Source: Escherichia phage IME178
DNA length: 64,000 nucleotides
Sequence record: NC_104190.1
Strand: one strand, 5' to 3'
Shown: positions 6,204-62,485 of the stretch, piece by piece
Layout: each line of letters begins with the position of its first letter
Position numbering within the stretch: the stretch's first letter is position 1
Notes under the pieces: generated by a model
Database searches by the model: none
Told to the model about the DNA's origin: nothing
What the model saw: only the letters and a program-made list of their open reading frames with translations
Translations under genes and position numbers: made by a program

Positions 6204-6794
6204 TCAGACATTTATATCACCACGTAATACAGCAGCTACATCTTCCCCTATTTGTAATACTTCACCGGTAGTACAATTAACTACTCTGTCATAGCTAGTA
6301 AACTTACCAGACACAATATCCTCTAGTGGAACTGGAGTTTTACTCATTTCAAATGAGACATTAATATAACGTGGGTCACGTAAAGAAATAGTATGTACAT
6401 GTCCGTGAATATTTAGTTTGCCACGAAGTTCATTAGGATGTAAAGGGCAGTGAGATAGCCAAAACTTTTTGCCACCTCCAGTCTGTTTACCTAGAGTCTG
6501 AATATCATCATAAACTTCTGCTAAGTCCCTAATGCTCAGTCCTTGACGTTCCGCATCGTGGTTGCCCATTATAAGTTGGTTAGGAACATTGTGGATAACC
6601 GACTTTAATTTGGCCAGACCTTCACGACCTACTGCAATATCTCCTAGCAAGATAAGTTTTGTTCGTTTACCAATATGCTTGGACAAAGTATCTAGAATAT
6701 ACTCATCATGCTCTTTCATGTTCTTAAACCACGGGCGGAAACGCAACGCTCCAGGGTGGTCTAGGTGCAAGTCTGACCAGAATTTAACTTTCAT
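6204..6794 (-). CDS. calcineurin-like metallophosphoesterase
   Basis: Motifs DLHLDH, GDIAVGR, GNHD and GHVH typical of the metallophosphatase fold. Confidence 0.7.
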   Translation of the reverse strand: MKVKFWSDLHLDHPGALRFRPWFKNMKEHDEYILDTLSKHIGKRTKLILLGDIAVGREGLAKLKSVIHNVPNQLIMGNHDAERQGLSIRDLAEVYDDIQTLGKQTGGGKKFWLSHCPLHPNELRGKLNIHGHVHTISLRDPRYINVSFEMSKTPVPLEDIVSGKFTSYDRVVNCTTGEVLQIGEDVAAVLRGDINV

Positions 6795-7083
6795 TACTCT
6801 TTTCCTTATTCTGTATTAAACTGTCAACCCAAGAGGTTAATACTTTGGTTTTAAACTCCTCGGGAGTTTCTCCTTCCCTAAGGTCTACCTCATTAAGATA
6901 GGTAGTAAGCCTTGTTTCTATCTCTATTTCAGTAGGAGAATTAAAACAAAAATTGACTGCTATTCCAGAATATATTACTCCGGTATCTCCTTTGACGAAA
7001 GCATTAACTAATGCTCTCCAACGAAGGGCATCAATACGCATTGCTCGTAATTCTTCTCGTATTTCCTTCATTCTATCATTCAT
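6784..7083 (-). CDS. hypothetical protein (99 aa)
   Basis: ORF in array. Confidence 0.45.
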   Translation of the reverse strand: MNDRMKEIREELRAMRIDALRWRALVNAFVKGDTGVIYSGIAVNFCFNSPTEIEIETRLTTYLNEVDLREGETPEEFKTKVLTSWVDSLIQNKEKSNES

Positions 7084-7691
7084 TAAAGAATCCTCTGTAC
7101 ACCGCAGCTATTATTTTTGTCTGTGGTAAATGTGGTGATTTTGCCAGTTTCATCATTAACTTGCGCAACCGTCAACTGCCCGTTGAAAACACCGCCAGTA
7201 TCAAGGTAAACACGGTTTTTATAAAGAAGTGGGTAAGGTACTCCAGTATGCCCATGAAACACGAAATCTACCCCTTTAACTTCTGGCACTTCTACCATGT
7301 ATTTTTCTTTAAATCCTGAATAACGCTGGAAATACGGGTGTTCCTCACCATTTTTGGACAAGTAGAAGCCTATTTCTTGGATTACATCTCGATCCCATAA
7401 ATATGGTTCAATATGGTACCCAGGATGGTCATGTGGGTCTTCCTTAGCTGCTTCTACTTGTGCAATAAGATTATCCCATACTGGGGTTTCTACCTCATTA
7501 CCGCATTCTTTGTATGTAAAAGGTACACCACCGTGAACAACACCATACTTCTTACCACGATGTCTAACAGTTAGGAATACTGGCATTTTTTTCAGCCATA
7601 TCTTCGGCGATATTTTTAATGGTGTCTGCATCCAGCTCTTCCATAGCCCATATACCACCGTTATACATCCAATTAGCCCAATCTCCTGCAA
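7083..7691 (-). CDS. Ser/Thr protein phosphatase, C-terminal fragment
   Basis: VVHGGV and FVFHGHT resemble the C-terminal half of lambda-type PPP phosphatases; N-terminal half lies in another frame. Confidence 0.6.
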   Translation of the reverse strand: MQEIGLIGCITVVYGLWKSWMQTPLKISPKIWLKKMPVFLTVRHRGKKYGVVHGGVPFTYKECGNEVETPVWDNLIAQVEAAKEDPHDHPGYHIEPYLWDRDVIQEIGFYLSKNGEEHPYFQRYSGFKEKYMVEVPEVKGVDFVFHGHTGVPYPLLYKNRVYLDTGGVFNGQLTVAQVNDETGKITTFTTDKNNSCGVQRIL

Positions 7692-7959
7692 TCATAAATT
7701 GGTCGTGATTACCACGGACACTGATAAAATGTGGATTATATAGGAATTTGGCTAAAACTTGTAGGTTTTGTGTGCCTCGGTCAATTAAGTCACCAACACA
7801 TACTAAGCAATCTTTCTTGCTATTATACCCAGCTAATTTCAACGCATCTTCCAGCAAATCATTGCATCCATGAATATCACCGACGAAAAACAAGTTGGCG
7901 TCATCCGGCACTACTAGAGTTTTATGTATATTAAATTCTTTTTTCATAATTATTCCCAA
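7564..7959 (-). CDS. Ser/Thr protein phosphatase, N-terminal fragment
   Basis: GDIHG, GDLIDRG and GNHD PPP motifs; ORF ends just after an A7 run. Confidence 0.65.
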   Translation of the reverse strand: MGIIMKKEFNIHKTLVVPDDANLFFVGDIHGCNDLLEDALKLAGYNSKKDCLVCVGDLIDRGTQNLQVLAKFLYNPHFISVRGNHDQFMIAGDWANWMYNGGIWAMEELDADTIKNIAEDMAEKNASIPNC

Positions 7960-8195
7960 ATAACAGTTAAAATAGTTGTGCCATACTCATTAGATAGTTG
8001 GAGAGTATATCCCTCTTTATAGATGGCTTTTATAGCTTCATAACTAATTTCATCACGATTAAACTGTACAAAAGAACCTCCAATCTCCACAGAAGAAACT
8101 ATTCTCTTTTTAACATACTTATACGTTTTCTTCTTGCTCTTAAGGAGTGCAGCTCTATTTATCCTGGCTAAACGTTTTGCTTGTTCCGCTAACAT
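7950..8195 (-). CDS. hypothetical protein (81 aa)
   Basis: ORF in array. Confidence 0.4.
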   Translation of the reverse strand: MLAEQAKRLARINRAALLKSKKKTYKYVKKRIVSSVEIGGSFVQFNRDEISYEAIKAIYKEGYTLQLSNEYGTTILTVIWE

Positions 8196-8199: not shown

Positions 8200-8577
8200 T
8201 TATCTCCAGTGGTTAGTATGCTTCTCAGCTTCCTCATCGTTAGGCTCAAAGACAACATGGCAGTCAACTGCTTCCCAAAAAGCCTCACGGATTAAAGAGT
8301 TTTTAGCTGAAATGTCTAATTCTCCCCACTCTTCTAAAGTCTCTAGGTCTGTATCAACTTCGGTATCACAGCCAACCAGCCCCAAAGAAACAACAATAGT
8401 AACGCGATCTTCACGTTGTTCGGGATAAACATCAGCATATTCCCAAGCAGCTTCTTCAACATAATATTGTTGTTCCTTTTCTGGAAGTGACTTATACTTT
8501 TCTTCTGTAATACCCATCTCAACAGCACGAGTACCACAAACTACATTGTTATTAATAATTAGATATGCATAGTTCAT
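8200..8577 (-). CDS. hypothetical acidic protein
   Basis: Start moved to ATG 8577 with AGGAG RBS. Confidence 0.45.
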   Translation of the reverse strand: MNYAYLIINNNVVCGTRAVEMGITEEKYKSLPEKEQQYYVEEAAWEYADVYPEQREDRVTIVVSLGLVGCDTEVDTDLETLEEWGELDISAKNSLIREAFWEAVDCHVVFEPNDEEAEKHTNHWR

Positions 8578-8656
8578 CGTAATACTCCTATTTCTTGAGT
8601 GGCAAAGATGTCCATTAATATGGCTAAAATCCCTGCAAAGATAGATGATGTAATCA

Positions 8657-8911
8657 TTATCTCCACCGTGGATAGTCATTACAAGTATATTTAAATTCAA
8701 TTTTCTGAGTAGGAGTAAATATCATATCACCATTGGTGCTAATAGATGTAAGAGTAGTAGATACTGTTCGCATTTCTTGCGTTTGTACACAGTTCTGGGC
8801 TGCCATTTCTTGGGCATCCTTAGCTTTATAATAGGCTTGTACCACCACTAAAGCAGTAGCTACTATACCAAGTCCAACCACTACCTTACCTAAGTGATTA
8901 TATAATATCAT
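8657..8911 (-). CDS. small membrane protein (84 aa)
   Basis: N-terminal transmembrane segment; promoter motif just upstream. Confidence 0.45.
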   Translation of the reverse strand: MILYNHLGKVVVGLGIVATALVVVQAYYKAKDAQEMAAQNCVQTQEMRTVSTTLTSISTNGDMIFTPTQKIEFKYTCNDYPRWR

Positions 8912-9027: not shown

Positions 9028-9303
9028 TCATCCAGGAAATTTTTTAATAGCTTCGTGCATAGTTTCTTTACGAAGCTGACGTCCAATCAGAATATGATTA
9101 GCTTCTACTCGACCATTAGGTAAGCGATCTGCCAGAACTACTACAGGAACTTGGCGCACACCAAATTTCTGCATTAATTCTGTATTATCAGTCTCTTTGT
9201 GGACTTCCAAATTATAGTCATTGACTACTTTATCAAATACTGGCTCAAACATTTTGCAAGGGTTGCAAGTGGAACCTTTCAATAGATATACTAATTTACT
9301 CAT
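9028..9303 (-). CDS. thioredoxin/glutaredoxin-like protein
   Basis: CNPC active-site-like CxxC motif near the N-terminus, small size. Confidence 0.6.
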   Translation of the reverse strand: MSKLVYLLKGSTCNPCKMFEPVFDKVVNDYNLEVHKETDNTELMQKFGVRQVPVVVLADRLPNGRVEANHILIGRQLRKETMHEAIKKFPG

Positions 9304-10710: not shown

Positions 10711-10994
10711 ATTGATCTACCTAAAGATCTCTGTTGTGGGGAACAGAGCTTTGTTAAATATTCCTTAAATTTCTCAGAATCGGCTGCATCTACAGGATTA
10801 TCTTTCCAAGCAATACCAATATATCCAGCATAGATATTGTTTAGATTGAAATATGGACAAGTGTATATGTAATTAAAAGTAACGTTCTTAAACGCAGGTA
10901 TATTTAACCCCGTATATTTATTTACTCTTACACTTAAATCCGATGCGTAGTTAAAGCCCTCTAAGTGACGTCTGTATAGCTCAGACGTTTTTAT
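10707..10994 (-). CDS. holin-like protein, C-terminal fragment (no start codon)
   Basis: About 95 open codons ending at a TGA that overlaps the lys ATG; no ATG/GTG/TTG; frame offset from upstream ORF at an A5 run. Confidence 0.4.
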   Translation of the reverse strand: MKTSELYRRHLEGFNYASDLSVRVNKYTGLNIPAFKNVTFNYIYTCPYFNLNNIYAGYIGIAWKDNPVDAADSEKFKEYLTKLCSPQQRSLGRSI

Positions 10995-11520: not shown

Positions 11521-12120
11521 TTACTCTTCGTTGTGCTCCTCGGATTGAGGTAACTGGGCTTTATTATATTGCTCAGATCGATATTTTGCCAAGATTTCAA
11601 TACGCTTATGGATTTCTTTGCTATCTAGATAGATATTTTTGTTGTCTTTTACCATCTCGTCGATTTCGTCTATTGAGAAGAACGGATAGTAGACATCTAG
11701 CATCATATCTTCTACGAACTTGTTGTAAGATTCATAGGCTTTCTTGATTTCTTGACCTTTCTCACAGAACCCACCAGAGAATGTATGTCCCATTAGTGTA
11801 GCATGTGGATGTACCACCCATCCATGACAAGATAGGAAAATTGTGCAGTAAGCAGAAGCACTAGGACCAACCAGATGTCCTATAACTGTTCCACGGCAAT
11901 TAGCAATTAAGTTAGATAACTGTGCAGCAGTATCAACATAACCACCAGGGCCATTAATCATCAGATTAATTTCGTCGTCCTCATTTGCTTGCATAAGTAC
12001 CATTGATAAATCACGGTATTCATCCGGCGGGCCTAATTCTTCATCAAAGAAAAAGGTATACTCATTAGATTGGCGAATGGAGTGAAACAGGTTAGTCTTT
12101 TCTTCTTTTTTATTAGTCAT
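11521..12120 (-). CDS. ClpP-like serine protease
   Basis: NGPGG motif and overall ClpP/crotonase-like pattern. Confidence 0.65.
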   Translation of the reverse strand: MTNKKEEKTNLFHSIRQSNEYTFFFDEELGPPDEYRDLSMVLMQANEDDEINLMINGPGGYVDTAAQLSNLIANCRGTVIGHLVGPSASAYCTIFLSCHGWVVHPHATLMGHTFSGGFCEKGQEIKKAYESYNKFVEDMMLDVYYPFFSIDEIDEMVKDNKNIYLDSKEIHKRIEILAKYRSEQYNKAQLPQSEEHNEE

Positions 12121-12132
12121 AGCGATCCTTGA

Positions 12133-12885
12133 TTATCCAACTAGTGGTTCTAGCTCTAAGTCACAGAAGTTATAAACTTCTAGTTTAAGGTTATTGATAC
12201 CATCGAATTTATTAACTAATTCGTGAGTAATATATTTTGCAGGAATACCACTTTCAGATGGATGATCTGATTTAATAGTGAACTTCTGCTCAGCGGGTAC
12301 TACATTTACTATCAAAGAATCCATATCTAAATGGTTTGTTTCTCTGAGTAACTCTCCTTCATTGGGGAATCTAACATCTGTTATTACGGCGACATCTGGG
12401 TCGTCTTTAGCGATGGATTGCTCCAGAATTATGAGCCAAATGCGTTCATGCACCAGCTGCCTTCCTAGCTCTGTCCCTACGAGCTGTAACATTTTTCTCG
12501 GAGAAATAAATAAACTATAAAGTCCGTCTTCTTTATTCTCTGAGATAAGTTGTTGGGGATTAAGATATTTTTCCTCAAAAATAGGCCAAACGTACGAGAA
12601 GTCTTCAAACTTATCGATACCGTACTTAAACCACACATCCCTGGCTCGCTCCAACTGAGATTGTGTGACCGTAAACCATTGGTCAATCTCTTTTCCCCTG
12701 CGCCCTCCTAGAAACTCTGGAGTTACACCGAGGATTACGGATGCAAGTTCATAAACGGGCTTAGCAAAACTATAACGACGAGATAAACACGTTGGATACG
12801 TGTCATTACACCAATCGATAATTAATTTTGCAACGGTATCTTTTCCCGAACCAGCTTCACCATGTAAACCGACTAATACTGACAT
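12133..12885 (-). CDS. dnk: deoxynucleoside monophosphate kinase
   Basis: P-loop GEAGSGKDT near the N-terminus; 250 aa, the size I recall for T5 dNMP kinase. Confidence 0.75.
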   Translation of the reverse strand: MSVLVGLHGEAGSGKDTVAKLIIDWCNDTYPTCLSRRYSFAKPVYELASVILGVTPEFLGGRRGKEIDQWFTVTQSQLERARDVWFKYGIDKFEDFSYVWPIFEEKYLNPQQLISENKEDGLYSLFISPRKMLQLVGTELGRQLVHERIWLIILEQSIAKDDPDVAVITDVRFPNEGELLRETNHLDMDSLIVNVVPAEQKFTIKSDHPSESGIPAKYITHELVNKFDGINNLKLEVYNFCDLELEPLVG

Positions 12886-12900: not shown

Positions 12901-13239
12901 TTAATTGGTGGATAGTAAACTAAGCAACGTTTTTTCTTGTAAATCTTGGCGATAGAAGCAAACCATACCAGTCAGTCGTGAAATATATGAGTATTCTGCC
13001 TCACGGCATTTTGCCAACATATTCCAATCTTTATATGGTACAACAACTACTACGCCATCTTCTCCATTTGTAGCTAATTTCTTTTCAAACTTAAAGTCAA
13101 AGCTACACGGTTGAAGTCCTTTAGGCCAGTCTACATGAGCTTGCTTTAACTCATGAGATGGCTCTGGTTTTATTTCTTCTGCACAGCCTGTGATTGTGAT
13201 TGCGGCTGCGAGCAGTATTCCAAGTTTCCAGTTAAACAC
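12901..13239 (-). CDS. putative lipoprotein
   Basis: Signal peptide with lipobox ITGC. Confidence 0.55.
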   Translation of the reverse strand: MFNWKLGILLAAAITITGCAEEIKPEPSHELKQAHVDWPKGLQPCSFDFKFEKKLATNGEDGVVVVVPYKDWNMLAKCREAEYSYISRLTGMVCFYRQDLQEKTLLSLLSTN

Positions 13240-13619
13240 GCTAATCTTTCCTCGAACTCTTTACTCTGCTTTTTAGCAATTAATGTTACCAATCCAGGCT
13301 TTGCAGCTATAATATCTTGGCGACTAAGTGCTTTATCTAACTGCTTAATCTTTTTGTCTAGATCTGCTTGAGAAATATTATTCATCGTGAAATACTGATT
13401 CATTCTAGTCTCACGAAGTTCGCTTTCAGCTTTCACCTTATTAAGCGAAGTCTCTAGAGAAGAGATCTTTTTAGTAGCTACTGCAAGATCACCTGCTAGA
13501 GTCTCCACTTTATCTACTAAATGATAAGCACCAAACCCGATGCCTATCGCTAGACCTGCTCCCAGGATATACCACTTACCGTGCCATATTCCTGAAAGAA
13601 GTTTTTGTATCAAATCCAT
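13170..13619 (-). CDS. membrane-anchored coiled-coil protein
   Basis: N-terminal transmembrane segment followed by charged helices. Confidence 0.45.
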   Translation of the reverse strand: MDLIQKLLSGIWHGKWYILGAGLAIGIGFGAYHLVDKVETLAGDLAVATKKISSLETSLNKVKAESELRETRMNQYFTMNNISQADLDKKIKQLDKALSRQDIIAAKPGLVTLIAKKQSKEFEERLACLTGNLEYCSQPQSQSQAVQKK

Positions 13620-14274
13620 GCGCTGCTAACCTGTCTTTATCTGATACTTTAATCATATCAGGCTCACCAGTTCCTAGTACTCCAAAGATATACTGTTCGA
13701 GAACTTGGTGTAAACGGTATAAGTTACTTTCAATTTCCTGCCACGGAATACCTGACTGATGGAAACGAATGTTAGTCTGAATCACGAAGTTACGAACATC
13801 ATCGTTATCGTTCTTTTTAATACCTTTCACATATGCAATCGGTACACGCAGTTCGGATAAGATACGTTCTGCTTTAGGTTTTGCTTCAGCGAGCAAATCA
13901 CGCATTGTTTCACGAACATCTCCGCGACTCTTATCCATTAAGTAAGAACGAGCATGCAATCCCATCTCTTCCATTTTATCGAACATAGTGTCGAGATTAA
14001 ACGTTTTGAAGCTAAATGCTGGATGCCAGCAGTATAGCTCGTGTAACCAGTAAACTTCACCTGCAACAAATAGTGGGTTTACAAAATATTCGAAATCACC
14101 ACGGAAAGATAGCGAACCATCACGAAATACCTGGCGAGTGTGCACAATGTTCTTTTCTGCATCATCGGTTACTTTAACCAGCAACTCTTCAGTTTTACGT
14201 TCCCAAACACGATCTGGGTCGAACAAACTGTTCTGCAAATCATACACATCAGCGAACTTAGAAATAATCCTCAT
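13576..14274 (-). CDS. hypothetical protein (232 aa)
   Basis: Long ORF downstream of promoter motif. Confidence 0.5.
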   Translation of the reverse strand: MRIISKFADVYDLQNSLFDPDRVWERKTEELLVKVTDDAEKNIVHTRQVFRDGSLSFRGDFEYFVNPLFVAGEVYWLHELYCWHPAFSFKTFNLDTMFDKMEEMGLHARSYLMDKSRGDVRETMRDLLAEAKPKAERILSELRVPIAYVKGIKKNDNDDVRNFVIQTNIRFHQSGIPWQEIESNLYRLHQVLEQYIFGVLGTGEPDMIKVSDKDRLAAHGFDTKTSFRNMAR

Positions 14275-14294
14275 ATTTAATCCTCTTGCCTCAA

Positions 14295-14345
14295 TCTATA
14301 AACATATTATACAAAAGTTTGGGCATCTAAGCAACTAAAATTTTA
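14295..14345 (-). promoter_or_regulatory. T5-type sigma70 promoter
   Basis: Minus-strand TTGCTT, 17 bp, TATAAT (14306-14311), conserved leader. Confidence 0.5.
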
Positions 14346-14349
14346 TTAT

Positions 14350-14386
14350 AAAAATAGCCCAGTCGCAACTTTGCAGGCTGGGCTTT
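14350..14386 (-). terminator. rho-independent terminator
   Basis: Hairpin AGCCCAG/CTGGGCT with T-run on the minus strand. Confidence 0.55.
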
Positions 14387-14429
14387 GTCATTATTTGCTT
14401 TTGCTAGTAAGTTGATTTTAATATCAATC

Positions 14430-14810
14430 TTATGTAATATTAGTTTCTCTAGCTTTGCGTAGTACCCCTGCATTTCTCCACAATTTGATGTCAGCAACTG
14501 TTTCTTTATATGGGGCAATGGTAGAACCAATTGGGCCAGCAACTAATAGTCCAAAGAACCCTACAATACGCATGTAGAACAAGCATTCTTTGGCTGTCAT
14601 ATTATTTACTGCTTTTTTCTGCTTTTCATCTTTAAACTTCTGTTCTTGATCATCAATACGTAGATACTTAACAAACCATTCAGCAGAATATTCGTCCAGA
14701 TGTCTAATAATAGCTATCGCATATCCAGCACCGATTAAAAACCAAGTTGTAACAAGAATTAGTAATGTAGTCATATTATCTCCAGTTATGGCTAGCAGCC
14801 ACCTCACCAC
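14430..14810 (-). CDS. membrane protein (126 aa)
   Basis: Several hydrophobic segments. Confidence 0.45.
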   Translation of the reverse strand: MVRWLLAITGDNMTTLLILVTTWFLIGAGYAIAIIRHLDEYSAEWFVKYLRIDDQEQKFKDEKQKKAVNNMTAKECLFYMRIVGFFGLLVAGPIGSTIAPYKETVADIKLWRNAGVLRKARETNIT

Positions 14811-14884
14811 TTACCGCACTAAGGGGCACGACTCCCTTATCCGTAACAGCTGCAGGTGACGCAACTCGGTCCTACGCGAGTTCT

Positions 14885-15169
14885 TTAGGTATTCTGCATT
14901 TCAGCTTTAAATTTTTTCATATTACGAGTCTTTCTATAAAAGAAAAATACAGATGTTGGGCCTAGAAGAATATCCACAATAAATATCATAGATCTAGCAC
15001 ATCTGAGTAATGTTTTATCATCAAGAGGAGGCAGATCTAACGGTCGAGTTTTATGTATAACGTATAATATTACATCTTTATTCTTAGAAATATACAGATC
15101 ATCAACCAAGCTGTAAATAGCTACTATAGATCCAATGACGAACCAAAGAGCAAATGGAGAGATAATCAT
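14885..15169 (-). CDS. membrane protein (94 aa)
   Basis: Hydrophobic segments. Confidence 0.45.
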   Translation of the reverse strand: MIISPFALWFVIGSIVAIYSLVDDLYISKNKDVILYVIHKTRPLDLPPLDDKTLLRCARSMIFIVDILLGPTSVFFFYRKTRNMKKFKAEMQNT

Positions 15170-15462
15170 TTCAGATCCTTTTCATTAATTAGAATATTAG
15201 TAAACAGTGGAGTAACTCCTAGACTCATAGTAGGTCCAAACGTATTCATGGCTACCCACAATTGCATAGTAATCATCCCATCTTTAATCTCTGGATCTTT
15301 ATATTCTTCGATACGTTTTTTAGCAAAGGCAACTACATCTGGAGTACTACCGTTCTTTACAACATGATCATGCCAAAACTGAGCGTTTTCACTCCGTAGG
15401 AATGTTAAAACATCCTTAGTTGCTGGAATCTGCACTGTGCTATTGATGTTTAGTCTTTTCAC
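15166..15462 (-). CDS. hypothetical protein (98 aa)
   Basis: ORF in array. Confidence 0.45.
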   Translation of the reverse strand: MKRLNINSTVQIPATKDVLTFLRSENAQFWHDHVVKNGSTPDVVAFAKKRIEEYKDPEIKDGMITMQLWVAMNTFGPTMSLGVTPLFTNILINEKDLK

Positions 15463-15859
15463 GTTCTTCTCTCCGACGTTTAGATTCTTTCATCATATGA
15501 GCTGCTACAACTTCGTGGTAGTAGTCATTAATGTTATCTTCTGGCAAGAAATGCTTAATAGTCTCTAGCTGACAAATAACTCGATGAAGATGGTTATTTG
15601 GTAGACACAATTTTATACCTGCAACAAATCCAGAGAAGCCTGGAACACTGAACATGGGTTGGGCTTCTACTCTACCTTCAGAGTTGATATTAAGCTCAAT
15701 TGAGATACCCATTTTCATACTATAAAGCTGGCAATATTCTCCATTACCAGACCTTGACCAAACAGTGAAATCCTCATCAATTTGATCTTGGATTTCTGTA
15801 ATTGCAAATTTAATTCTAGGGTCTAAATTATTCATCTTCACCTTCAAAGTCGCAATCAT
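15440..15859 (-). CDS. hypothetical protein (139 aa)
   Basis: ORF in array. Confidence 0.45.
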   Translation of the reverse strand: MIATLKVKMNNLDPRIKFAITEIQDQIDEDFTVWSRSGNGEYCQLYSMKMGISIELNINSEGRVEAQPMFSVPGFSGFVAGIKLCLPNNHLHRVICQLETIKHFLPEDNINDYYHEVVAAHMMKESKRRREEREKTKHQ

Positions 15860-16133
15860 AACGACAAGTAAAAGAGCTGGAGCTATTAGTACGTTGAGTG
15901 GTTATTTCACCACGTTTGCCAATAGTAACGGCTGGAGTAGAGAAGTTTTTATTAGTATAGATTTCTACTTTACCATTACGTTCTTTAACATCGCGAACTT
16001 TACCATACTCGGTAATAATACCGTTCTGTTGGACTTTAACATTACCATTTTTCATAGAAACTTTGGTAGACGCCAGAGAACCGAAACTAACTGCGGAGAT
16101 CATCAGTGCAATAATAAACTTATTCATCTTCAT
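15828..16133 (-). CDS. secreted protein with signal peptide
   Basis: Start moved to internal Met (MKMNKFIIALMISAVSFGSLAS), which gives a classic signal peptide. Confidence 0.45.
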   Translation of the reverse strand: MKMNKFIIALMISAVSFGSLASTKVSMKNGNVKVQQNGIITEYGKVRDVKERNGKVEIYTNKNFSTPAVTIGKRGEITTQRTNSSSSFTCRYDCDFEGEDE

Positions 16134-16401
16134 CCTCCCCACTACAATCACGACATACATCATAATCGTTGAAAGAACGTTCGTGAGCTTCACACCACCA
16201 AGAACAAGAATCGCAGAGGAACATTTCGGTTTTCTCCAGTGCTTGACCTAAAAGATCATCAGCTTCCTCAGCAGTAATCTTCAATCCGCACACATCTGCC
16301 ACACGTTCTTTAATTAAACGACCTGCTTCATGGTAGGACATACAGGTTCCCGCAACATCATGCTCAAGAACATGAACAGCACAGTCTAGACGAGTTTTCA
16401 T
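16120..16401 (-). CDS. Cys-rich hypothetical protein (93 aa)
   Basis: CDSCSWWC and CRDC motifs suggest zinc binding; promoter upstream. Confidence 0.45.
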   Translation of the reverse strand: MKTRLDCAVHVLEHDVAGTCMSYHEAGRLIKERVADVCGLKITAEEADDLLGQALEKTEMFLCDSCSWWCEAHERSFNDYDVCRDCSGEDEDE

Positions 16402-16419
16402 TTCAAACCTCTCTCATCA

Positions 16420-16470
16420 ATTTATAAACATATTATAGCAAGAAAAGAGAGGTTTAGCAAATGAATTATT
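16420..16470 (-). promoter_or_regulatory. T5-type sigma70 promoter
   Basis: Minus-strand TTGCTA (16455-16460), 17 bp, TATAAT (16432-16437), conserved leader. Confidence 0.55.
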
Positions 16471-16477
16471 TCAGAAT

Positions 16478-16825
16478 TTAGTCATAGCACCACCATAACC
16501 CACGCTTACGCATGTCATGATCGCGATTATAATCGTAATTTTCTGGATCTTTCATCACGCGGTGGAGTTCTTGACGATTACCTTGACGAACCATCTTATT
16601 AGAGTGCCACTTAACATTCTTACTAATAGAATTCCAGTTATAACCATCCTTTTTCTCATTACGAATGGTTGCTTCCTTCATTTCTTTTTTGATGTCGTCC
16701 CAGGATTTGGCATAAATAACACGAATCCAGTAGCCATTTTCTTTGAAGAAAGAATATTCTTGAGAGAAGTGTTCTTTAGACTTCCACCACTGATCACCAG
16801 ATTGTTTACGATAAGTACGGCTCAT
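16478..16825 (-). CDS. hypothetical protein (115 aa)
   Basis: ORF in array. Confidence 0.45.
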   Translation of the reverse strand: MSRTYRKQSGDQWWKSKEHFSQEYSFFKENGYWIRVIYAKSWDDIKKEMKEATIRNEKKDGYNWNSISKNVKWHSNKMVRQGNRQELHRVMKDPENYDYNRDHDMRKRGLWWCYD

Positions 16826-16903
16826 ATTACCTCCATTAAGTCTTTTAAATTAACCTAATGTGGATGAATTTTATTATACATATATTATGTACCTTTATAC
16901 AGA

Positions 16904-16940
16904 AAAACCCCAGACTACTTATTCAATAGCTGGGGTTTGT
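16904..16940 (-). terminator. rho-independent terminator
   Basis: Hairpin ACCCCAG/CTGGGGT followed by a T-run on the minus strand. Confidence 0.55.
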
Positions 16941-16946
16941 TATTAA

Positions 16947-17261
16947 TTACAGGTCGGGGCGTTCATCTTCTAAACAGCCTGAGCTGATTCCTTCTCCGAA
17001 TCCTACAAAGCCATCAAATTCATCATTTGAGATGCCCATAATCATCGCTTCCATTTTCCTGATCTCCGAGGTTTTCATGCCTGCTTTACTATTCTTATAG
17101 TACTTGCGAGGGTTCCCACACATCCAACAAGAACAGATGCAAGGAGTAGTAGTGATAATACCTAACCGCTTAGGGCTTTCTTCATGTGGAAAGACTGTCC
17201 AGTACTTCTTGCGGTTGTTCTTTACACGTTGCCTGTGATGACGTCTTAATGCTCGATCCAC
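16947..17261 (-). CDS. Cys-rich hypothetical protein (104 aa)
   Basis: PCICSCWMC cysteine cluster. Confidence 0.45.
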   Translation of the reverse strand: MDRALRRHHRQRVKNNRKKYWTVFPHEESPKRLGIITTTPCICSCWMCGNPRKYYKNSKAGMKTSEIRKMEAMIMGISNDEFDGFVGFGEGISSGCLEDERPDL

Positions 17262-17342
17262 ACATTTCTCCTAAAACTTGGGAGATAAACGGAGTTTGCT
17301 CGACTACCTTGCGTAGCTGGGAGAAATCGTACCCAAACCCCA

Positions 17343-17711
17343 TTACATCGCCTGAGTAAATGTACGACTAATAACGTCGTTCTGTTGTTCACGAGTCAGT
17401 GCATTAAATCGAACAGCGTACCCTGAAACACGGATAGTTAATTGAGGGTATTTTTCAGGATGTTTCTGCGCATCCAAAAGCTGATCACGGCTTAATACAT
17501 TGACATTTAGGTGCTGACCACCTTCGATTTGAGGAACCACTTCCACATCTACAATGCGAAAGGCCTCAGGGTCAAAGTGAGGTGTGATACCTTCTAGATC
17601 TTCAACTAGAACTTTCTGTTTAAGTTCACCATTATCGGAATATAGCTGAATGATCTGATTATTATGAACAATATTAATTACGCCAGATTTAAGGTTTTGA
17701 TATGCTTTCAT
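17343..17711 (-). CDS. grcA: autonomous glycyl radical cofactor (GrcA/YfiD-like)
   Basis: C-terminus [10 protein letters not shown]...[17 protein letters not shown]...TFT matches the glycyl-radical domain of E. coli GrcA and PFL. Confidence 0.8.
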
Positions 17712-17753
17712 TAGATCTCCCCGATGTTAGAATTTGGCTCAGCTATTTATTCT

Positions 17754-17948
17754 TTATACTTTTCCATAGTATACGGAAACTGTCTTACCAGTTTGGTTCA
17801 TGACATATGCTACTTCATCTTCTTTTAAAAAGATGGCTTGGTCTACTCCAACTATAGCCAGTCTTTTATTTCTAGGATTAAAGCTTACACTTTTGCCTGT
17901 ATGAATCTGTTCCCCATTCTTGGCTGACATTATTTTAATTGTTAACAT
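17754..17948 (-). CDS. hypothetical protein (64 aa)
   Basis: Small ORF. Confidence 0.4.
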   Translation of the reverse strand: MLTIKIMSAKNGEQIHTGKSVSFNPRNKRLAIVGVDQAIFLKEDEVAYVMNQTGKTVSVYYGKV

Positions 17949-17985
17949 AGCTGCTCCTAAAGTTAGCTATCTCTAGCTCTTTTAA

Positions 17986-18061
17986 TGGTAGTTAGTAGTG
18001 GATTTGAACCACTGTAGTCGCTCCGTATGAAGGAGGTGCATAACCACTCTGCCAACTAACT
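17986..18061 (-). tRNA. tRNA with CAU anticodon (Met or Ile2)
   Basis: Hand-folded cloverleaf, acceptor AGTTAGT/ACTAACT, loop TTCATAC, encoded CCA. Confidence 0.65.
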
Positions 18062-18157
18062 ATTATGTTTTACTAGACTAAGTAAGTATTCTTTATACTC
18101 TTTAGACCAATTAGCTTTTTTAAACTTTCCTGGACGCATAGTCTTAATTCCTAAATT

Positions 18158-18234
18158 TGGTACTCCGGGAGGGATTTAAACCCCCGATCTCTCGGTTATC
18201 AGCCGAGTGCTTTAGATCGCTAAGCTACCGAAGC
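18158..18234 (-). tRNA. tRNA-Ile (anticodon GAU)
   Basis: Hand-folded: anticodon stem CTCGG/CCGAG, loop CTGATAA, encoded CCA. Confidence 0.7.
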
Positions 18235-18235
18235 A

Positions 18236-18463
18236 TTAACATTTTGCAGCAGAACGTTTGCCATTTCTAGGTGCACCTGGAAGTCGTGCACGTTCTGTCA
18301 TTCTTCGCTTAATCTTTGAGATATTATCTAGTGTTTGTTCTTCAGGCTTAATACCTGAAACACTACACCACTGATTACCATCCCATGCGGTAATGATCAT
18401 AACACCATTACTCATGATCTTTTCTGTAAAAGTAATCCTCATTATAGCAACTCGTCTAAGCAA
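18236..18463 (-). CDS. hypothetical protein (75 aa)
   Basis: Small ORF between tRNA genes. Confidence 0.35.
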   Translation of the reverse strand: MLRRVAIMRITFTEKIMSNGVMIITAWDGNQWCSVSGIKPEEQTLDNISKIKRRMTERARLPGAPRNGKRSAAKC

Positions 18464-18735
18464 GAGGTATATTTAAGTTTACCATCTTTATCTACTTTGA
18501 TTTCGACTTCCGCTCGTGGTACTTGACGAACTACACCATGAATCATCTTATAGCGAATGCCTTTAGCTGGTTCACGCTCTTTTGGAAATACTTGCTTAAC
18601 CGTTACTACCTTAAAACCCTCACGCGGTGTTAACACTACTACTTGATCACCTTCTTTGATCTTCCAAGAGCCAGGAAATTCGTAAGTATAGCGTTGACCA
18701 CCAGTTTGGAACACAACAGAAAGATAACGTTTCAT
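18442..18735 (-). CDS. hypothetical protein (97 aa)
   Basis: ORF downstream of promoter motif. Confidence 0.45.
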   Translation of the reverse strand: MKRYLSVVFQTGGQRYTYEFPGSWKIKEGDQVVVLTPREGFKVVTVKQVFPKEREPAKGIRYKMIHGVVRQVPRAEVEIKVDKDGKLKYTSCLDELL

Positions 18736-18744
18736 TTGGCTTCC

Positions 18745-18800
18745 CTCTCATTAATTTATATAAATATTATAACAATAAATAAGAGAGAAAGCAAATGAAT
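18745..18800 (-). promoter_or_regulatory. T5-type sigma70 promoter
   Basis: Minus-strand TTGCTT, 17 bp, TATAAT (18766-18771), conserved leader. Confidence 0.5.
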
Positions 18801-23103: not shown

Positions 23104-23281
23104 ATTAAATTACTTTTTCCAGTTCATCAGCTATGGCTTTGATTTTTTCAAAGTTTACATCACTAATAATGATACCTTCCAGTGACAGAGATATTCTAGC
23201 ATTTTTTCGTAGCAGATTCTTTTATCTGCTCTATCTCTTCTGGAGTAAACTCTCTACGTTCCATAGCTAACCTACATTATT

Positions 23282-24547: not shown

Positions 24548-24826
24548 TTAAGAATTTGATGCCTTTTTTTTTTTTTTTTTCTTCTTATACTTCCACGTTA
24601 ATGGATTCTGTCGATTGTGAACGCTTGAGATCTTTGTCTCGTCAAAGTTCTTCAATACCATGTAATCACAAGATAATTGTTCTAATGGAATGTGATCACC
24701 GTCAAAAGCGTATACATAAGGCTGTTGACTAGCACTATAATGATAGACTTTGTTAATTCTACGTTTCAGCAACTTATCCGCGCAGTAAATAAAGAAGTTT
24801 TCAGGATGCATCAGCAGCTCCCTCAA
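24548..24826 (-). CDS. hypothetical protein with C-terminal poly-Lys encoded by an A17 tract
   Basis: ORF runs through a 17-nt homopolymer giving KYKKKKKKKK before the stop. Confidence 0.4.
   Translation of the reverse strand: MRELLMHPENFFIYCADKLLKRRINKVYHYSASQQPYVYAFDGDHIPLEQLSCDYMVLKNFDETKISSVHNRQNPLTWKYKKKKKKKKASNS
24564..24580. repeat. 17-nt T/A homopolymer
   Basis: Uninterrupted T17 on the plus strand inside the 3-prime end of a minus-strand ORF. Confidence 0.9.
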
Positions 24827-24828
24827 TT

Positions 24829-24903
24829 TGGTGCACCCTGTTCGTATCGAACGAACCTCTCAAGCTCTTCAGGCAAGCGCTAATCCATCTCAGCTAAAGG
24901 TGC
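24829..24903 (-). tRNA. tRNA-like gene, possibly Phe (anticodon GAA) with mismatched anticodon stem
   Basis: Good acceptor and T-arm (GTTCG-TTCGATA-CGAAC); loop CTGAAGA; two U-U mismatches in anticodon stem. Confidence 0.4.
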
Positions 24904-31059: not shown

Positions 31060-31413
31060 TTACTCTACTTCAATGAAGGTAGAGGCGTTAGACTCGGACA
31101 GAACAAAGTCAACATTTGTTGCAAAGTCCTGATATTCCTCGTCATGCTGCTTAATCAGCTTTTCCAGTTCCAGCGGATCAATCAAGAATGGAGTATTCTT
31201 GAGTTCCAGCAGGTTGAGCTGCATTTTAACTTCATCTTCGGAAGTTTTTCTTATCGCGGGTAGCCATGCTATCCTGCAAACGCTCATATTTAGCATCAAA
31301 CTGTGCTTTCTGCGTATTAAACTTAACCGTGGCGGCATGGAACTGCTTACGCATGTTAGCCAGCAGTTGGGCTTTAAGTTCCATAGAACGCTTAGCTTCA
31401 ATTGCTTCCGCAA
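31060..31413 (-). CDS. hypothetical protein, probable C-terminal fragment
   Basis: Overlaps the upstream ORF by 182 nt in another frame; frames meet at an A5 run. Confidence 0.4.
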   Translation of the reverse strand: MRKQLKLSVLWNLKPNCWLTCVSSSMPPRLSLIRRKHSLMLNMSVCRIAWLPAIRKTSEDEVKMQLNLLELKNTPFLIDPLELEKLIKQHDEEYQDFATNVDFVLSESNASTFIEVE

Positions 31414-34707: not shown

Positions 34708-34802
34708 ATGTGTACCTCCAATTTATAAAATATATTATATTTAAATTTCACTAAATAAGCAAATGAAATTTAAATATAATAGCCCCGAAGGGGCTATTTG
34801 AG

Positions 34803-36547: not shown

Positions 36548-37689
36548 AAGAAATCTCCAAATTCATTACCCAGATCTTTCAGAGTATCAGTAGAGGTTTC
36601 GGTGACTTGACCTACACGATATGCTGCACCAATCTGGATTTCTTGTGGAGCAGGCTGTAAAGAAGTGGTATCCAACCAGTTCATGATCCACGGAATAGGG
36701 TTTTTGGTGATTACTGGTAAATGACTAGGCCATTCTACACCAATGTGCATAAATGCATTACGCCCCACAAAGTACAGATATTCTTCTAGAAGTTCTGCAT
36801 TCAAGCCAATCAGACTACGACCTTTGAAAATGAAATGACCCCATTCAATTTCAGTTTTCAAAGTTTTCAGGAGCTGTGCTGGTGCTTTAGCCACTGCTTC
36901 ATCTACCAGATCTTTGTCAAATTGCTGAAACATAATCTGGATGATTGCTTTGGACATCTGAGTGTGCAGAGCTTCATCTTTAGCGATTAATTGCAGATTT
37001 TTAGCAATACCTTGCAGAATATCGTTCTCTGCTAATGCAAAGGTACATGCAAAGGATGCGTAAAACTGCATTGCTTCCAGACCATAGATCGCAAAGTAAG
37101 CGTCTAATAGTTTAGCCTGAGTTTCACGTTTAACTTCAGGGAACTCAGTTTCTGGGTATGTATTGTCGCCACGATGATCGCGTACTGCGATGAAATACTG
37201 ACCTAACTGGTACAGTTCATCGAATAGTTCAACAGAATCAGCGATACGTGCGAATGCTTCTTGGTTTTTGGTTACAGAATCAATAAATTCTGCTGGATCA
37301 GTCAGCACATTACGAATAATATTGCTATAAGCACGACTATGTAGGTCTTCAAAATAGCTCCACTGTTTGAGCATACCTTCCAATTCTGGACGACTTACAA
37401 GCGGCATAATAGCCGCTTCAGGGGCACGACTGATAAAGGAATCAGTTTGAGTTTGCCATGCTAAGTTCAGGAGTGTAATTTCCTGAATTTCTCGTGGGAG
37501 ATTAGGCCATTGTTTCTTATCTGCTTCCAGACTGATTTCAGTTTCAGTCCAAAATTGAGAGCGTTGCAGAAGTGCCAGACGTTCTAGTTCTGGGTGTGCT
37601 ACACGTACGTAATCTGCGATACCGAGAGAATCTCCCAGGAAAAGGTCAGCGTTAGTATGATCCCAATTCAGGTTTAGTAAAGTAGTCAT
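36544..37689 (-). CDS. nrdB: ribonucleotide reductase class Ia small subunit
   Basis: Ferritin-like di-iron radical subunit pattern; adjacent to nrdA. Confidence 0.85.
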   Translation of the reverse strand: MTTLLNLNWDHTNADLFLGDSLGIADYVRVAHPELERLALLQRSQFWTETEISLEADKKQWPNLPREIQEITLLNLAWQTQTDSFISRAPEAAIMPLVSRPELEGMLKQWSYFEDLHSRAYSNIIRNVLTDPAEFIDSVTKNQEAFARIADSVELFDELYQLGQYFIAVRDHRGDNTYPETEFPEVKRETQAKLLDAYFAIYGLEAMQFYASFACTFALAENDILQGIAKNLQLIAKDEALHTQMSKAIIQIMFQQFDKDLVDEAVAKAPAQLLKTLKTEIEWGHFIFKGRSLIGLNAELLEEYLYFVGRNAFMHIGVEWPSHLPVITKNPIPWIMNWLDTTSLQPAPQEIQIGAAYRVGQVTETSTDTLKDLGNEFGDFL

Positions 37690-37764
37690 TGATTTTCCTC
37701 TTTCTCACTATTTCAGGAATATTATAGCAAATCTGGTAGCGATTAGCAAGTAAAATTTCAAAGA

Positions 37765-37795
37765 AAAAGGAGACCCGAAGATCTCCTTGTTTTTA
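37765..37795 (-). terminator. intergenic hairpin terminator (T-runs on both sides)
   Basis: Hairpin AAGGAGA/TCTCCTT between nrdA and nrdB. Confidence 0.45.
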
Positions 37796-40126
37796 TTAAA
37801 TAGTACAACCGCCTGATGCACAACCGGCTGCTTCCTCTCCTGCACCTCCACCATTTGCGGTATTGAAGTTAGCATAATAGAAAGTTTTCCACCCGTATTT
37901 AACAGCAGTCATGAAATCACGAACTACTACTGGGCCAGGAATAACTTCATTCTCAAACTTGGTGTAGTCGTAGTACATATTCGTACTGATAGACTGACTG
38001 AAGAATTTCTGCATAGTTGCTACCCATTTGATCAACTCGATACGATCTACATCATAAGCCAGTTTATAGCTCATTAACGTTTCCCAATCGGTTGCACCCG
38101 GGGCAATTGCAATTACTTTATTTACTGCACTACCCTTGATAGATACAATCTTACGAGGCGGTTCAATAGAGTTAGTAACACCTAACAGAACAGAAGAACT
38201 TTCTCCCGGCATCTGAGCAGTCAGAACAGAGTTACGCATACCGTATTTCAGAATATCTGCACGCAGAGACTCCCAATCCATTTCTAGACCTACGGATACC
38301 AGTTCATCAACAGTTTTCTTATACGTGTCGATTACTAGAATTCCTTTAGATGGTTTAGTACGATCAAACCACTCACATGCGCCCTGTTCTTTAGCCAGGC
38401 GTACAGAGGCTTTATGCAGGAAGTAAGACAGTTTTTCAGCCTCACGGTGAATCCAGTTACGGGCTTCAATACCTTCGTAAGCCAGACCTTCTGCTGCCAT
38501 TGCACCCGCTGCGTTCATCAGGCCAATACCAACATTACGACGTTTCTTAGCCGTATATTCCATAGTTGGGAACGGATAATCCTGAATTTCAATAATTGTG
38601 TCAACAAATTTCAGAAGGATGTAGCAAGTTTTTTCCCACTCAGCCAGAGATTCCATGCGTCCAAGTACAACACCACCTAAGTTACATAGAGATACTTCAC
38701 CAATATCCTCCGGCTTCATTTGATCAAGCTGCTCTTTTGTCTTATACAGCTCTGTAATGTGGTGGAATGGACGTGTAGGCTGAGTAATTTCAACACAAAG
38801 GTTTGTCATACGGATCGGATCAAGGAAGTTACCGTGACGGTTAGATTCCCCAATGTGGTGAGCATACATACGTCCTGTTTCCATCCTGATACGTAGCCAA
38901 GTATCTAGGATTTCTTTTGCAGAGACCCTAGGAGCTGCTGGAACTGTTTTTCCTTCGTGGTCGATCTTTGTAAGAGATGCCACACGTTTCTCCGCTGCCA
39001 CGTAGATTTCTTCAAATTTAGCCTCGTCATCACTATAAAACGCTTCATGAACTTCTGGAGCATAGAAGTATGACATTAGCGTAATATCTTCGTTTTTAAG
39101 ATAACGTTTTAACAAAAGATTGTTAAAGCTCAGAGAATAATCCATCTTATCGATTTTATTCTCATCTGTAGCACGTTGTTGCTTAACCTGCATTAATTGA
39201 ATGATTTCAGGGTCGAAGTATGGATAAGACACTGTAGCAGAACCACCACGAGTTTGCTGGGTATTGGCCTTTACTGAGCGATCAATGTGTCGATAATATG
39301 GCAGTTTTCCGGAATGCGGGAATGCCCCATTTCGCACCGGATCAGCAATTGATCGGCTTTCAAGATGATACCCGATTCCCGCTCTGGCTGCAACCATTTT
39401 GAAGACGATGTGCTCGGCGGTGTCGATTGAATCCAACGTGTCAGTGGAATCCACGAGGCAGCAACTAGCAAATCCACGATCACTAGAGCGCAGACCAACC
39501 AGTGGCGGCGTAGGAACGTTGATTTTGTGGAGTGACATTGCGTTGTAGAGGTCGATTGCATCTAGAATTGTCCAGTTAGGTTGAGATAGCATCGCCATTG
39601 CCATACCCATGTAGGCGAATTGCGGGGTTTCATAAATTTCACCAGTAGCTATATTACGACGGGAATACTTATCAAAGAACTGCTTCAGCCCACCACTAGT
39701 AAAAAGACGGTCACGATCATGGTCGATAACCTGATTCAGAGCTTCAAATTGCTCATCTGTAATCCATGCACTCATATCTTCCCATGCACCTACGCTAACC
39801 ATGTGATCATGGAAGAAGCGTAAAGAAGGTGGTTCGAAAGAATCATAAAGGCGTTTACGCATTTGCGCAAGACGTAATTCCTTTGCTGGCACATCGTATG
39901 CTGGATTATCTTTGATAAGACTTTCAGCAGCTTTAATTAATGCATCCATCAGAGTGTCGGAATCTACAACCCCTTTAGGTAGGGTTTTTTGAGCAGCCAT
40001 AGTAATGGCTGACCAGCTTACATCAACTGTTTTGCAACCATACTCTGCCCAACCATTGAGTTTTTCAGGAGCAAAGTCTTCTACAGTACCGTCACGTTTA
40101 ATTACTTTTTCAATGCGATGGCTCAT
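37796..40126 (-). CDS. nrdA: ribonucleotide reductase class Ia large subunit
   Basis: ATP-cone start MSHRIEKVIKRDG and NrdA-like core; start moved to ATG 40126 with AAGGAAA RBS. Confidence 0.85.
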   Translation of the reverse strand: MSHRIEKVIKRDGTVEDFAPEKLNGWAEYGCKTVDVSWSAITMAAQKTLPKGVVDSDTLMDALIKAAESLIKDNPAYDVPAKELRLAQMRKRLYDSFEPPSLRFFHDHMVSVGAWEDMSAWITDEQFEALNQVIDHDRDRLFTSGGLKQFFDKYSRRNIATGEIYETPQFAYMGMAMAMLSQPNWTILDAIDLYNAMSLHKINVPTPPLVGLRSSDRGFASCCLVDSTDTLDSIDTAEHIVFKMVAARAGIGYHLESRSIADPVRNGAFPHSGKLPYYRHIDRSVKANTQQTRGGSATVSYPYFDPEIIQLMQVKQQRATDENKIDKMDYSLSFNNLLLKRYLKNEDITLMSYFYAPEVHEAFYSDDEAKFEEIYVAAEKRVASLTKIDHEGKTVPAAPRVSAKEILDTWLRIRMETGRMYAHHIGESNRHGNFLDPIRMTNLCVEITQPTRPFHHITELYKTKEQLDQMKPEDIGEVSLCNLGGVVLGRMESLAEWEKTCYILLKFVDTIIEIQDYPFPTMEYTAKKRRNVGIGLMNAAGAMAAEGLAYEGIEARNWIHREAEKLSYFLHKASVRLAKEQGACEWFDRTKPSKGILVIDTYKKTVDELVSVGLEMDWESLRADILKYGMRNSVLTAQMPGESSSVLLGVTNSIEPPRKIVSIKGSAVNKVIAIAPGATDWETLMSYKLAYDVDRIELIKWVATMQKFFSQSISTNMYYDYTKFENEVIPGPVVVRDFMTAVKYGWKTFYYANFNTANGGGAGEEAAGCASGGCTI

Positions 40127-40268
40127 TTGGCTTTCCTTTTTATAGTTATCAGGATTTAAGGAATATTCTACTTTATTATCGGTCATTAGGCAAATAAAAT
40201 TTTCTGATAGAAAAGGCCCGAGTATTTTCATACCCAGGCCCTGTATATTACCAGTCTAGCTTTTTAGC

Positions 40269-40490
40269 TTATTCAATTACTTTAGCTCTAGCTACTTCTT
40301 TTAATAGAATATCTATGGAGGTGCTCAGCTCGTTATAATTGAATGGTTTATTTGGATTTGAGGTTACAATTTTCCACGCTAGGGTTGTCTTAGGACTTTC
40401 TTCCCCTTCCTTACGTGTAATCATATTAGCAGCACTCAGTGAAGTACGATGTATTTTAGTTTTACGGCTCAGATGAACGACGTTTCCCAT
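40269..40490 (-). CDS. hypothetical protein
   Basis: Start moved to ATG 40490, directly after the phoH stop. Confidence 0.4.
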   Translation of the reverse strand: MGNVVHLSRKTKIHRTSLSAANMITRKEGEESPKTTLAWKIVTSNPNKPFNYNELSTSIDILLKEVARAKVIE

Positions 40491-52257: not shown

Positions 52258-52857
52258 ATGACTAATGTAAAAGACTTTATTAAACGCTGTCAAGAAGCAT
52301 ATTATCAAGGTATGTCTTTAATCTCTGACGAAGAATATGATCGTCTGATTAAAAGATTTCCATTAGAAGAAGAGATCGGGCCTAAGGGTGATATTCCACA
52401 TCTGTATCGTATGTATTCTTTACAGAAAGTTTATTATAATCGTGGAGATAAACCTCCGTTCAACCCGTTAGGTCAGGTAGAAACTGATAAGTTAGATGGT
52501 TGTGCGATTTCTCTGTTATATATTAATGGAGAATTTGTTCAAGCACTAACTCGTGGTAATGGTATTCTAGGGAATGATGTCACAAGCAACGTAAGATTGC
52601 TGAATATCCCTAAAAAGATTTCCCAAAAAGTACCTACTCAAATCACTGGTGAAGTTCTAATTACAAAAGAAGTAGAAAATAAACGTAACTTTGCCTCTGG
52701 TGCTATTAACCTCAAAGATAGCGATGATTTCGTACAACGTATTGGGGAAGGTGGTTTAATCTTCGTTGCATATGGTATCCAGTGTTCTGCTGAATCTGTA
52801 GGTATTACAGAAGCGTACTTAAAAGATATGCTCTGGCTGGAGAATGAGACTTCTTAA
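52258..52857 (+). CDS. lig: NAD-dependent DNA ligase, adenylation-domain piece
   Basis: KxDG adenylation motif ([10 protein letters not shown]) and LigA-like N-terminal Ia/NTase sequence. Confidence 0.8.
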
Positions 52858-56518: not shown

Positions 56519-57294
56519 GTAGAATAACAGAACTACTTGATCTGAAAGGCATTGAATATAAAGACACAGGTGGGGACATCCTCATCTGTTGTCTCAATCC
56601 AGATCATGACGATAAACACCCAAGTTTGCGTATTGATCCTGAAACAGGTATTATGCACTGCTTGAGTTGTGGCTTCGGTAAAGGTATACCGAGCATTTAC
56701 CATTATTTTAATGAGACTCAGTACCGACAGTCCCCAAGGCTATCGCAAGTACGTAAAAAGATTTCAGAGATTAGGAATGGGTCAACGAATCTTGCAATTC
56801 CTGAATCTGCTTACCTTTTCGAAGGTGATTTCCGAGGTATAAGTTCTAAGACCTTGAAGAAATATTTTGCTTTCCAACACCAAGCAGACTGGGAAGGCAG
56901 AATTGTATTCCCAATCACAGATGCTGTTGGACGCAATATCCTATTTTTGGGTCGTTCTATAAACAGTTCTGCCCCTCCTAAATACTTAGTAAAACCAAAA
57001 CAAGTTTCACCACCAATTTTTCCTGTACGATATAATACCCCAATTCTTATTCTAGTTGAAGGTATCTTTGATATGCTGAATCTAGAGGATAATGGTATAG
57101 ACTATGCTTCTTGTTGCTTCGGTACACATCAGTTTACTTCAGATAACATTGCAGATAAGTTTAGTCCGTATATTATTGCTGGTGTTAAAGTTGTTGTTAT
57201 CTTACTAGATAATGATGCTTCTGGTAATAAAGCTGCACAAGCACTGGCTAAGCTAATTCGTACAAAAAACGCGTTTAACACCTGTAGTTGCTAA
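56515..57294 (+). CDS. DnaG-like DNA primase (zinc-binding plus TOPRIM), truncated by frameshift
   Basis: Zn ribbon CCLNPDH...HCLSCGFG, TOPRIM ILVEGIFD and LLDNDASG; ORF stops just after an A6 run. Confidence 0.75.
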   Translation: MSRITELLDLKGIEYKDTGGDILICCLNPDHDDKHPSLRIDPETGIMHCLSCGFGKGIPSIYHYFNETQYRQSPRLSQVRKKISEIRNGSTNLAIPESAYLFEGDFRGISSKTLKKYFAFQHQADWEGRIVFPITDAVGRNILFLGRSINSSAPPKYLVKPKQVSPPIFPVRYNTPILILVEGIFDMLNLEDNGIDYASCCFGTHQFTSDNIADKFSPYIIAGVKVVVILLDNDASGNKAAQALAKLIRTKNAFNTCSC

Positions 57295-62264: not shown

Positions 62265-62485
62265 ATGATGTATAATATACACATAAATTTGAGAGAGAAA
62301 GTTTCGGATTGATAAGAAAGTCCGAAGCAGAAAAATAAAAAATTTTAGTTGCTAAATTCTCTCGAAATCTAGTATAATATATACATAAATTCGAGGAGAA
62401 AATAAAAATTAAATTCTTCGATTATGAAAAGCTATACTTACTAGCTAGAGGAAATTCCGACCTAATTATTAAGCTATTCAAAAGA

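Follow-up and report, generated by a model that had tools for sequence, protein, structure and literature searches.

Within the 64,000-nt stretch of Escherichia phage IME178 DNA that was analyzed here (the window), a gene for a lambda-type Ser/Thr phosphatase is distributed between two reading frames, which raises the question of whether the phage really carries a split gene or whether the split belongs to the assembled record. A sequence-only reading had described two phosphatase ORFs in different frames, with an overlap of 128 nt. We reproduced this arrangement at the same coordinates, the minus-strand ORFs listed there being 7564..7959 (131 aa, TTG start) and 7083..7691 (202 aa). The sequence motifs that had been assigned to them are present as well, with GDIHG, GDLIDRG and GNHD in the N-terminal ORF and VVHGG and FHGHT in the C-terminal ORF. 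By homology, the predicted true start of the phosphatase is the ATG at 7947, and translation from this codon in frame 0 yields a 127-aa product that ends in ...MAEKNASIPNC. Coordinates of the features under study are collected in Table 1.

Table 1. Features of the phosphatase locus and sites of other one-base indels in the window.
Feature	Position	Strand	Remarks
Ser/Thr phosphatase gene, lambda-type/NinI-like, frameshifted in this assembly	7083..7947	-	homology to T5 YP_006863.1 and AKFV33 orf035
A7 run with frame change (T7 on + strand)	7586..7592	-	A6 in relatives
N-terminal frame as written, 127 aa, motifs I-III, ends NASIPNC and stop past the run	7564..7947	-	
C-terminal frame, 167 aa from ATG that uses the final A of the run; His138 and His233	7083..7586	-	
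Thioredoxin gene, near 3' end, +1 (T5 to T6 on + strand)	9040..9045	-	last 7 aa drop from alignment, 9037
Holin gene, middle, +1 (T4 to T5 on + strand)	10988..10992	-	131+95 codons become 222 on repair; frame -2 to -3 at ~10991
T5.044-like gene (AKFV33 orf045), near 3' end, +1 (T5 to T6)	12930..12935	-	frame -2 to -3, 12922-12938
orf066 homologue, 52 aa, split by +1 (T5 to T6)	23202..23207	-	frame -3 to -1 at ~23200-23206
T5.085-like gene (AKFV33 orf083), split by +1 (T4 to T5)	31245..31249	-	frame -1 to -2, 31247-31251
Intergenic GC hairpin, +1 (G3 to G4)	34790..34793	.	window only
DNA ligase subunit A (ligA), one-base deletion (AA to A)	52848..52849	+	versus AKFV33 and T5_ev212; frame +1 to +3 at 52848
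DNA primase, +1 (A5 to A6), last 46 aa shifted	57264..57269	+	frame +1 to +2 at 57267
Intergenic, +1 (A5 to A6)	62337..62342	.	window only

The Frame Junction

On the coding strand, the two frames meet at GCTGAAAAAAATGCC, which in its wider context and in coding orientation reads GAAGATATGGCTGAAAAAAATGCCAGT. The sequence-only reading had placed the junction at 'GAAAAAAAT' together with a T7 tract at 7586-7592. The position of the junction stands, but the two elements are one run seen on two strands rather than two features. When AKFV33 orf035 was compared with the window by tblastn, residues 1-120 were found in frame -2 (7947-7588) and the remainder in frame -3, down to 7086. The frame thus breaks after residue 120, and removal of one A from the A7 run generates an 864-nt ORF of 287 aa. 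The A7 at 7586-7592 is the sole 7-mer homopolymer of the window, a T17 tract excepted.

The Repaired Protein and Its Family

The proposal that an A6 run would give one continuous PPP-family phosphatase was borne out, since the 287-aa ORF obtained by the one-base deletion matched both the Pfam family Metallophos (PF00149) and lambda phosphatase (1G5B). The match to PF00149 scored 60 bits (cut-off 21.5; E=5.6e-16) over residues 20-236 and crosses the junction unbroken. The N-terminal fragment alone scored 47.5 bits and covered profile positions 4-93 only, and the C-terminal fragment alone matched no Pfam family. As had been anticipated, the fused protein could also be aligned with lambda phosphatase (E=1.2e-33), straight through the junction and without an indel there, along ...EDMAEKMPVFLTVRHRGKKYGVVHGG.... 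Since both alignments cross the junction, the split phosphatase is not a chance pattern.

In the repaired protein, the motifs are located at residues 23-27 (GDIHG), 52-58 (GDLIDRG), 79-82 (GNHD), 136-140 (VVHGG) and 230-234 (FHGHT). Motifs I-III pair with GDLHG, GDLVDRG and GNHE of 1G5B, in keeping with the pattern GDxHG, GDxxDRG, GNH[DE]. The same alignment pairs D24, H26, H138 and H233 with lambda residues D20, H22, H139 and H186; the equivalence of His138 and His233 is by positions counted from this alignment, and His139 and His186 of the lambda enzyme are metal ligands of the 1G5B structure. In the sequence as written, His138 and His233 lie in the other frame, downstream of A7, and an A6 run is needed to bring them into one polypeptide with motifs I-III.

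Lambda phosphatase (NinI/ORF221) shares with the repaired protein the three N-terminal motifs and two C-terminal histidines. The two differ in size (221 aa for the lambda enzyme and 287 aa for the repaired phage protein), and a segment of ~65 aa (residues ~155-219) between the C-terminal His motifs of the phage protein has no counterpart in the lambda enzyme. The gene as written in the window further differs from that of lambda in being frameshifted. The phosphatase gene, like the family to which it belongs, is already known. A literature search on the function or enzymology of the T5 phosphatase returned nothing specific; by analogy with its family, the protein may act on host or phage phosphoproteins during infection.

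Run Length in Related Phages

The window belongs to a T5-like phage (Demerecviridae, Tequintavirus) and is ~98% identical to the genome of Salmonella phage PK7. PK7 is the nearest phage record (~98-99%), with no record reaching at least 99% identity over long stretches. In the phosphatase region, identity is 99.4% to Salmonella phages PK7 and PK8 and 97% to AKFV33 and T5_ev212. At the level of the repaired protein, it is 99.7% to the PK7 protein (XTS04121.1) and 90% to that of T5 (YP_006863.1).

The orthologues in T5 (AY587007.1 17361-18221), AKFV33 (orf035) and PK7 are the same gene in the same neighbourhood as in the window, with an 81-aa ORF upstream and, downstream, a 99-aa ORF and then a second phosphoesterase. 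They differ from the window gene only by its extra A. All orthologues examined are one 864-nt CDS, which is annotated in the relatives as 'NinI-like serine-threonine phosphatase'.

The run length was followed at several levels. Each of the best 60 DNA matches measures 876 bases against 877 in the query, and the run is A6 in all four relatives that were fetched. With the run at the centre of a 71-base query, A6 was found in 85/85 phage records, 70 bases being aligned against 71; all 85 fall in the 95-99% identity band, none at or above 99%, and the top matches differ by the one-base gap only. At the protein level, the phosphatase gene is found in 710 phage records. Sixty of these were sampled at even spacing from best to weakest, including T5, SPC35 and Klebsiella, Pectobacterium and Erwinia phages, and in each of the 60 the gene is a single piece in one frame. 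The exact A7 allele gave no match in IMG/VR, a metagenome collection and a genome collection, and the same kind of scan with the exact A6 allele retrieved 7 and 5 contigs (12 in total). The exact 127-aa truncated product had no match among recorded proteins. Conservation of the two halves as separate genes, which would have spoken for a real split, was not seen in the relatives, which uniformly carry A6 and a single 864-nt CDS. On this comparison, the phosphatase split is not conserved.

Neighbouring Genes

The 81-aa ORF upstream of the phosphatase (7950-8195, minus strand) corresponds to AKFV33 orf036 (8421-8666) and is the equivalent of hypothetical protein T5.036. Several RefSeq relatives label it 'major head protein', which looks like an annotation error.

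A second metallophosphoesterase, intact and 196 aa long, is located at 6204-6794 (minus strand), two genes downstream of the phosphatase, so that the phage has a pair of calcineurin-like phosphoesterases next to each other; it is 99.5% identical to AKFV33 orf033, a 'phosphoesterase'. In the window, AKFV33 and T5_ev212, a 99-aa ORF (6784-7083 in the window) precedes the 196-aa phosphoesterase. PK7 has in this place a 522-nt 'phosphoesterase' that directly abuts the phosphatase, and window positions 6215-7078 gave no alignment to PK7 (about 11796-12317). This difference from PK7 is a local mosaic replacement.

Other One-Base Indels in the Window

The whole window was aligned to PK7, and indels were polarised with AKFV33 and T5_ev212. 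Relative to PK7, single bases are inserted at a number of isolated homopolymers of the window, and none of its homopolymers shows an isolated deletion. Comparison with PK7, AKFV33 and T5_ev212 left eight isolated one-base indels that occur in the window alone, at the phosphatase run and at 9040-45, 10988-92, 12930-35, 31245-49, 34790-93, 57264-69 and 62337-42. All eight are insertions in runs of at least 4; the same procedure returned one unique indel for PK7, one for AKFV33 and two for T5_ev212. To these eight we added the sites at 23202-23207 and 52848/9, each of which is seen against two of the three relatives. The former is observed against PK7 and AKFV33; T5_ev212 does not align there.

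In tblastn searches with AKFV33 proteins, a clean frame switch was detected at every coding site, and in each case deletion of the extra base brought the long ORF back. In ligA, repair converts ORFs of 199 and 126 codons into one of 323. The sequences flanking the breaks are 82-100% identical to AKFV33 on both sides, and at least 97% identical wherever the flank is longer than 25 aa. The extra base at the holin site is present in none of the 257 phage records that contain this stretch, and that at the primase site in 0/165. The genes inspected as controls (DNA polymerase, replicative helicase, dNMP kinase, ligB, metallopeptidase and the neighbouring phosphoesterase) are intact.

Several assignments were tried and given up. 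The site at 31245 was considered to lie in the metallopeptidase gene, but tblastn found the metallopeptidase to be intact and placed the break in the T5.085-like orf083. Position 16907 was dropped as a window error because PK7 is the deviant genome there, and position 8814 because PK7 alone differs from the window at this point and it is the window that has the longer ORF. A transcript-derived or strand-specific process, suggested by the fact that all A/T insertions lengthen sense-strand A-runs, was also rejected, as composition accounts for this pattern: among runs of at least 6 on the plus strand, there are 29 of T and 1 of A in the left arm and 9 of A and none of T in the right arm. Since sense-strand A-runs dominate by composition, the strand bias of the insertions is no hint of a special process.

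Other irregularities were noted in the course of the alignments. Two 2-nt differences are specific to the window with respect to all three relatives: a deletion at 45548, which a TGTATAATG -10-like element closely follows, and an insertion at 53233-53234 (TATATGTAA versus TACATAA). Whether repaired or not, the first site is spanned by long ORFs; at the second, the longest ORF grows from 37 to 57 codons on repair. The T17 homopolymer at 24564-24580, far longer than other runs of the window, covers part of the low-coordinate end of a minus-strand ORF of 103 codons (24551-24859). In AKFV33 and T5_ev212 this locus reads TTTCTTTTT, which is 8 nt shorter, and the T17 may be a genuine poly-T tract or one more artefact of the assembly. 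The PK7 record (PV611632.1) has multi-kb stretches without an annotated CDS (13187-18746 and 36625-40312) where AKFV33 annotates a helicase, a ligase and others, and its alignment is indel-rich around window positions 52700-53940; this record may itself be affected by faults of assembly or annotation.

Origin of the Phosphatase Frameshift

We assign a probability of about 0.85 to the explanation that the A7 at the phosphatase junction is a homopolymer over-call in the assembly, an error that we infer rather than observe. The real gene would then be an ordinary single-ORF Ser/Thr phosphatase of 287 aa, a binuclear metallophosphoesterase of the lambda-PPase/NinI type. An A6 run would have been recorded as A7 during sequencing or consensus building, which would make the gene look split after residue 120, and the same kind of error would have occurred at some ten further positions of the window.

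As to direction, 8-9 of the 9-10 other sites are insertions, as is the case at the phosphatase. A one-sided excess of homopolymer insertions is a typical signature of a platform or consensus error, and a plaque-forming phage that carries frameshifts in the holin, primase and ligase genes together appears implausible; that holin, primase and ligA are essential in T5-like phages is assumed from annotation. Since about ten similar indels break conserved and presumably essential genes, the split is most likely an assembly error and not biology. Miscalls provide a single explanation for errors that are restricted to homopolymers and one-sided, for downstream sequence that is nearly intact and for the fact that needed genes are affected. 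Most probably, then, the split is not a real feature of the phage.

Alternative Explanations

Real slippage mutations, too, most often take the A6 to A7 form. The run in the phosphatase could be the product of real and recent replication slippage, which would make the gene a fresh pseudogene or a contingency tract in its 'off' state, subject to reversion to A6 or to weak rescue through A6 or A9 transcripts. The downstream half has not decayed, which fits a very recent slippage event, and A6 or A9 transcripts, as well as a +1/-2 shift, would give the full-length phosphatase. An accessory phosphatase is plausibly dispensable, and under laboratory conditions probably so; a real mutation here would therefore be compatible with errors at all the other sites. 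We nevertheless regard real slippage as unlikely. No length polymorphism of the phosphatase tract is seen in the 85 records or the 12 contigs, all of which are A6, and the same type of lesion is present in holin, primase, ligA and other genes, where an artefact covers all cases and slippage needs a special case.

The more elaborate form of this explanation draws on a preprint in which hypermutable homopolymer tracts of at least 6 bp in ORFs of phages T2 and T4 are described as contingency loci, with an average variant rate of ~3e-4 (10.1101/2025.10.21.683753). The phosphatase tract belongs to the class proposed there, coding homopolymers of at least 6. Like those loci, it is a coding run of 6-7 A whose change in length switches the gene off. 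Unlike them, it is invariant in length among relatives, with only A6 outside the window, and the change in the window is accompanied by equivalent changes in shorter runs of presumably essential genes, which argues for error rather than bet-hedging. Furthermore, if the reported rate applies, a variant arising at ~3e-4 on average would be expected to need a bottleneck or selection before it could make up the consensus. We think it still less probable that the A7 is real and the A6 tract a contingency-type switch, with this isolate being 'off' and relying on reversion or on low-level rescue by transcripts with one A fewer or two more.

Programmed recoding, in which +1/-2 ribosomal frameshifting or RNA-polymerase slippage would set a fixed ratio of 127-aa to full-length product, is very improbable. 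A/T runs can promote transcript slippage, A AAA AAT formally is an X XXY YYZ slippery heptamer, and the productive frame can be reached by a +1 or -2 shift or by A6 or A9 transcripts. However, an A8 transcript, like the usual -1 slip on A AAA AAT, leads to a dead end after 125 aa. The shift site contains neither a stop codon nor a codon known to be slowly decoded in E. coli, and the 25 nt upstream of it hold no Shine-Dalgarno-like stimulator. Efficient slippage is known for runs of about 9 or more, and the run of 7 is shorter than these. Finally, no relative shares the frameshift (A6 in 85/85 records, a single frame in 60/60 sampled), so that selection for recoding is not visible.

That the two frames are functional genes, encoding 127 aa and 167 aa (the latter restarting at the ATG at 7586-7584) and acting as a split enzyme or in new separate roles, is barely credible: the in-frame ATG formed with the last A of the run lies 20 nt upstream of the 0-frame stop, which makes termination-reinitiation geometrically possible, but it is not preceded by a Shine-Dalgarno sequence, separate phosphatase genes occur in no relative (60/60 sampled are single), the metal ligands would be divided between the N-terminal (D24, H26, D53, N80) and C-terminal (H138, H233) fragments, and the latter on its own has no Pfam family match.

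Implications

If the homopolymer over-call is accepted as the cause, the main value of the finding is in quality control, as it flags this assembly for polishing. Annotation of the genome as written would produce two truncated phosphatase fragments together with a broken holin, primase, ligase and thioredoxin. Any of the seven other frameshifted genes could pass as a 'split gene' for a sequence-only reader, and mining for recoding sites or pseudogenes would collect false positives from this assembly.

If, conversely, the A7 were confirmed, it would present a modest case of a T5-like phage gene inactivated through a homopolymer, and a true contingency switch at this position would extend phage contingency loci from T-even phages to the Demerecviridae and to a host-modifying enzyme. 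As matters stand, the phosphatase of the real phage is most likely intact and made as one protein.
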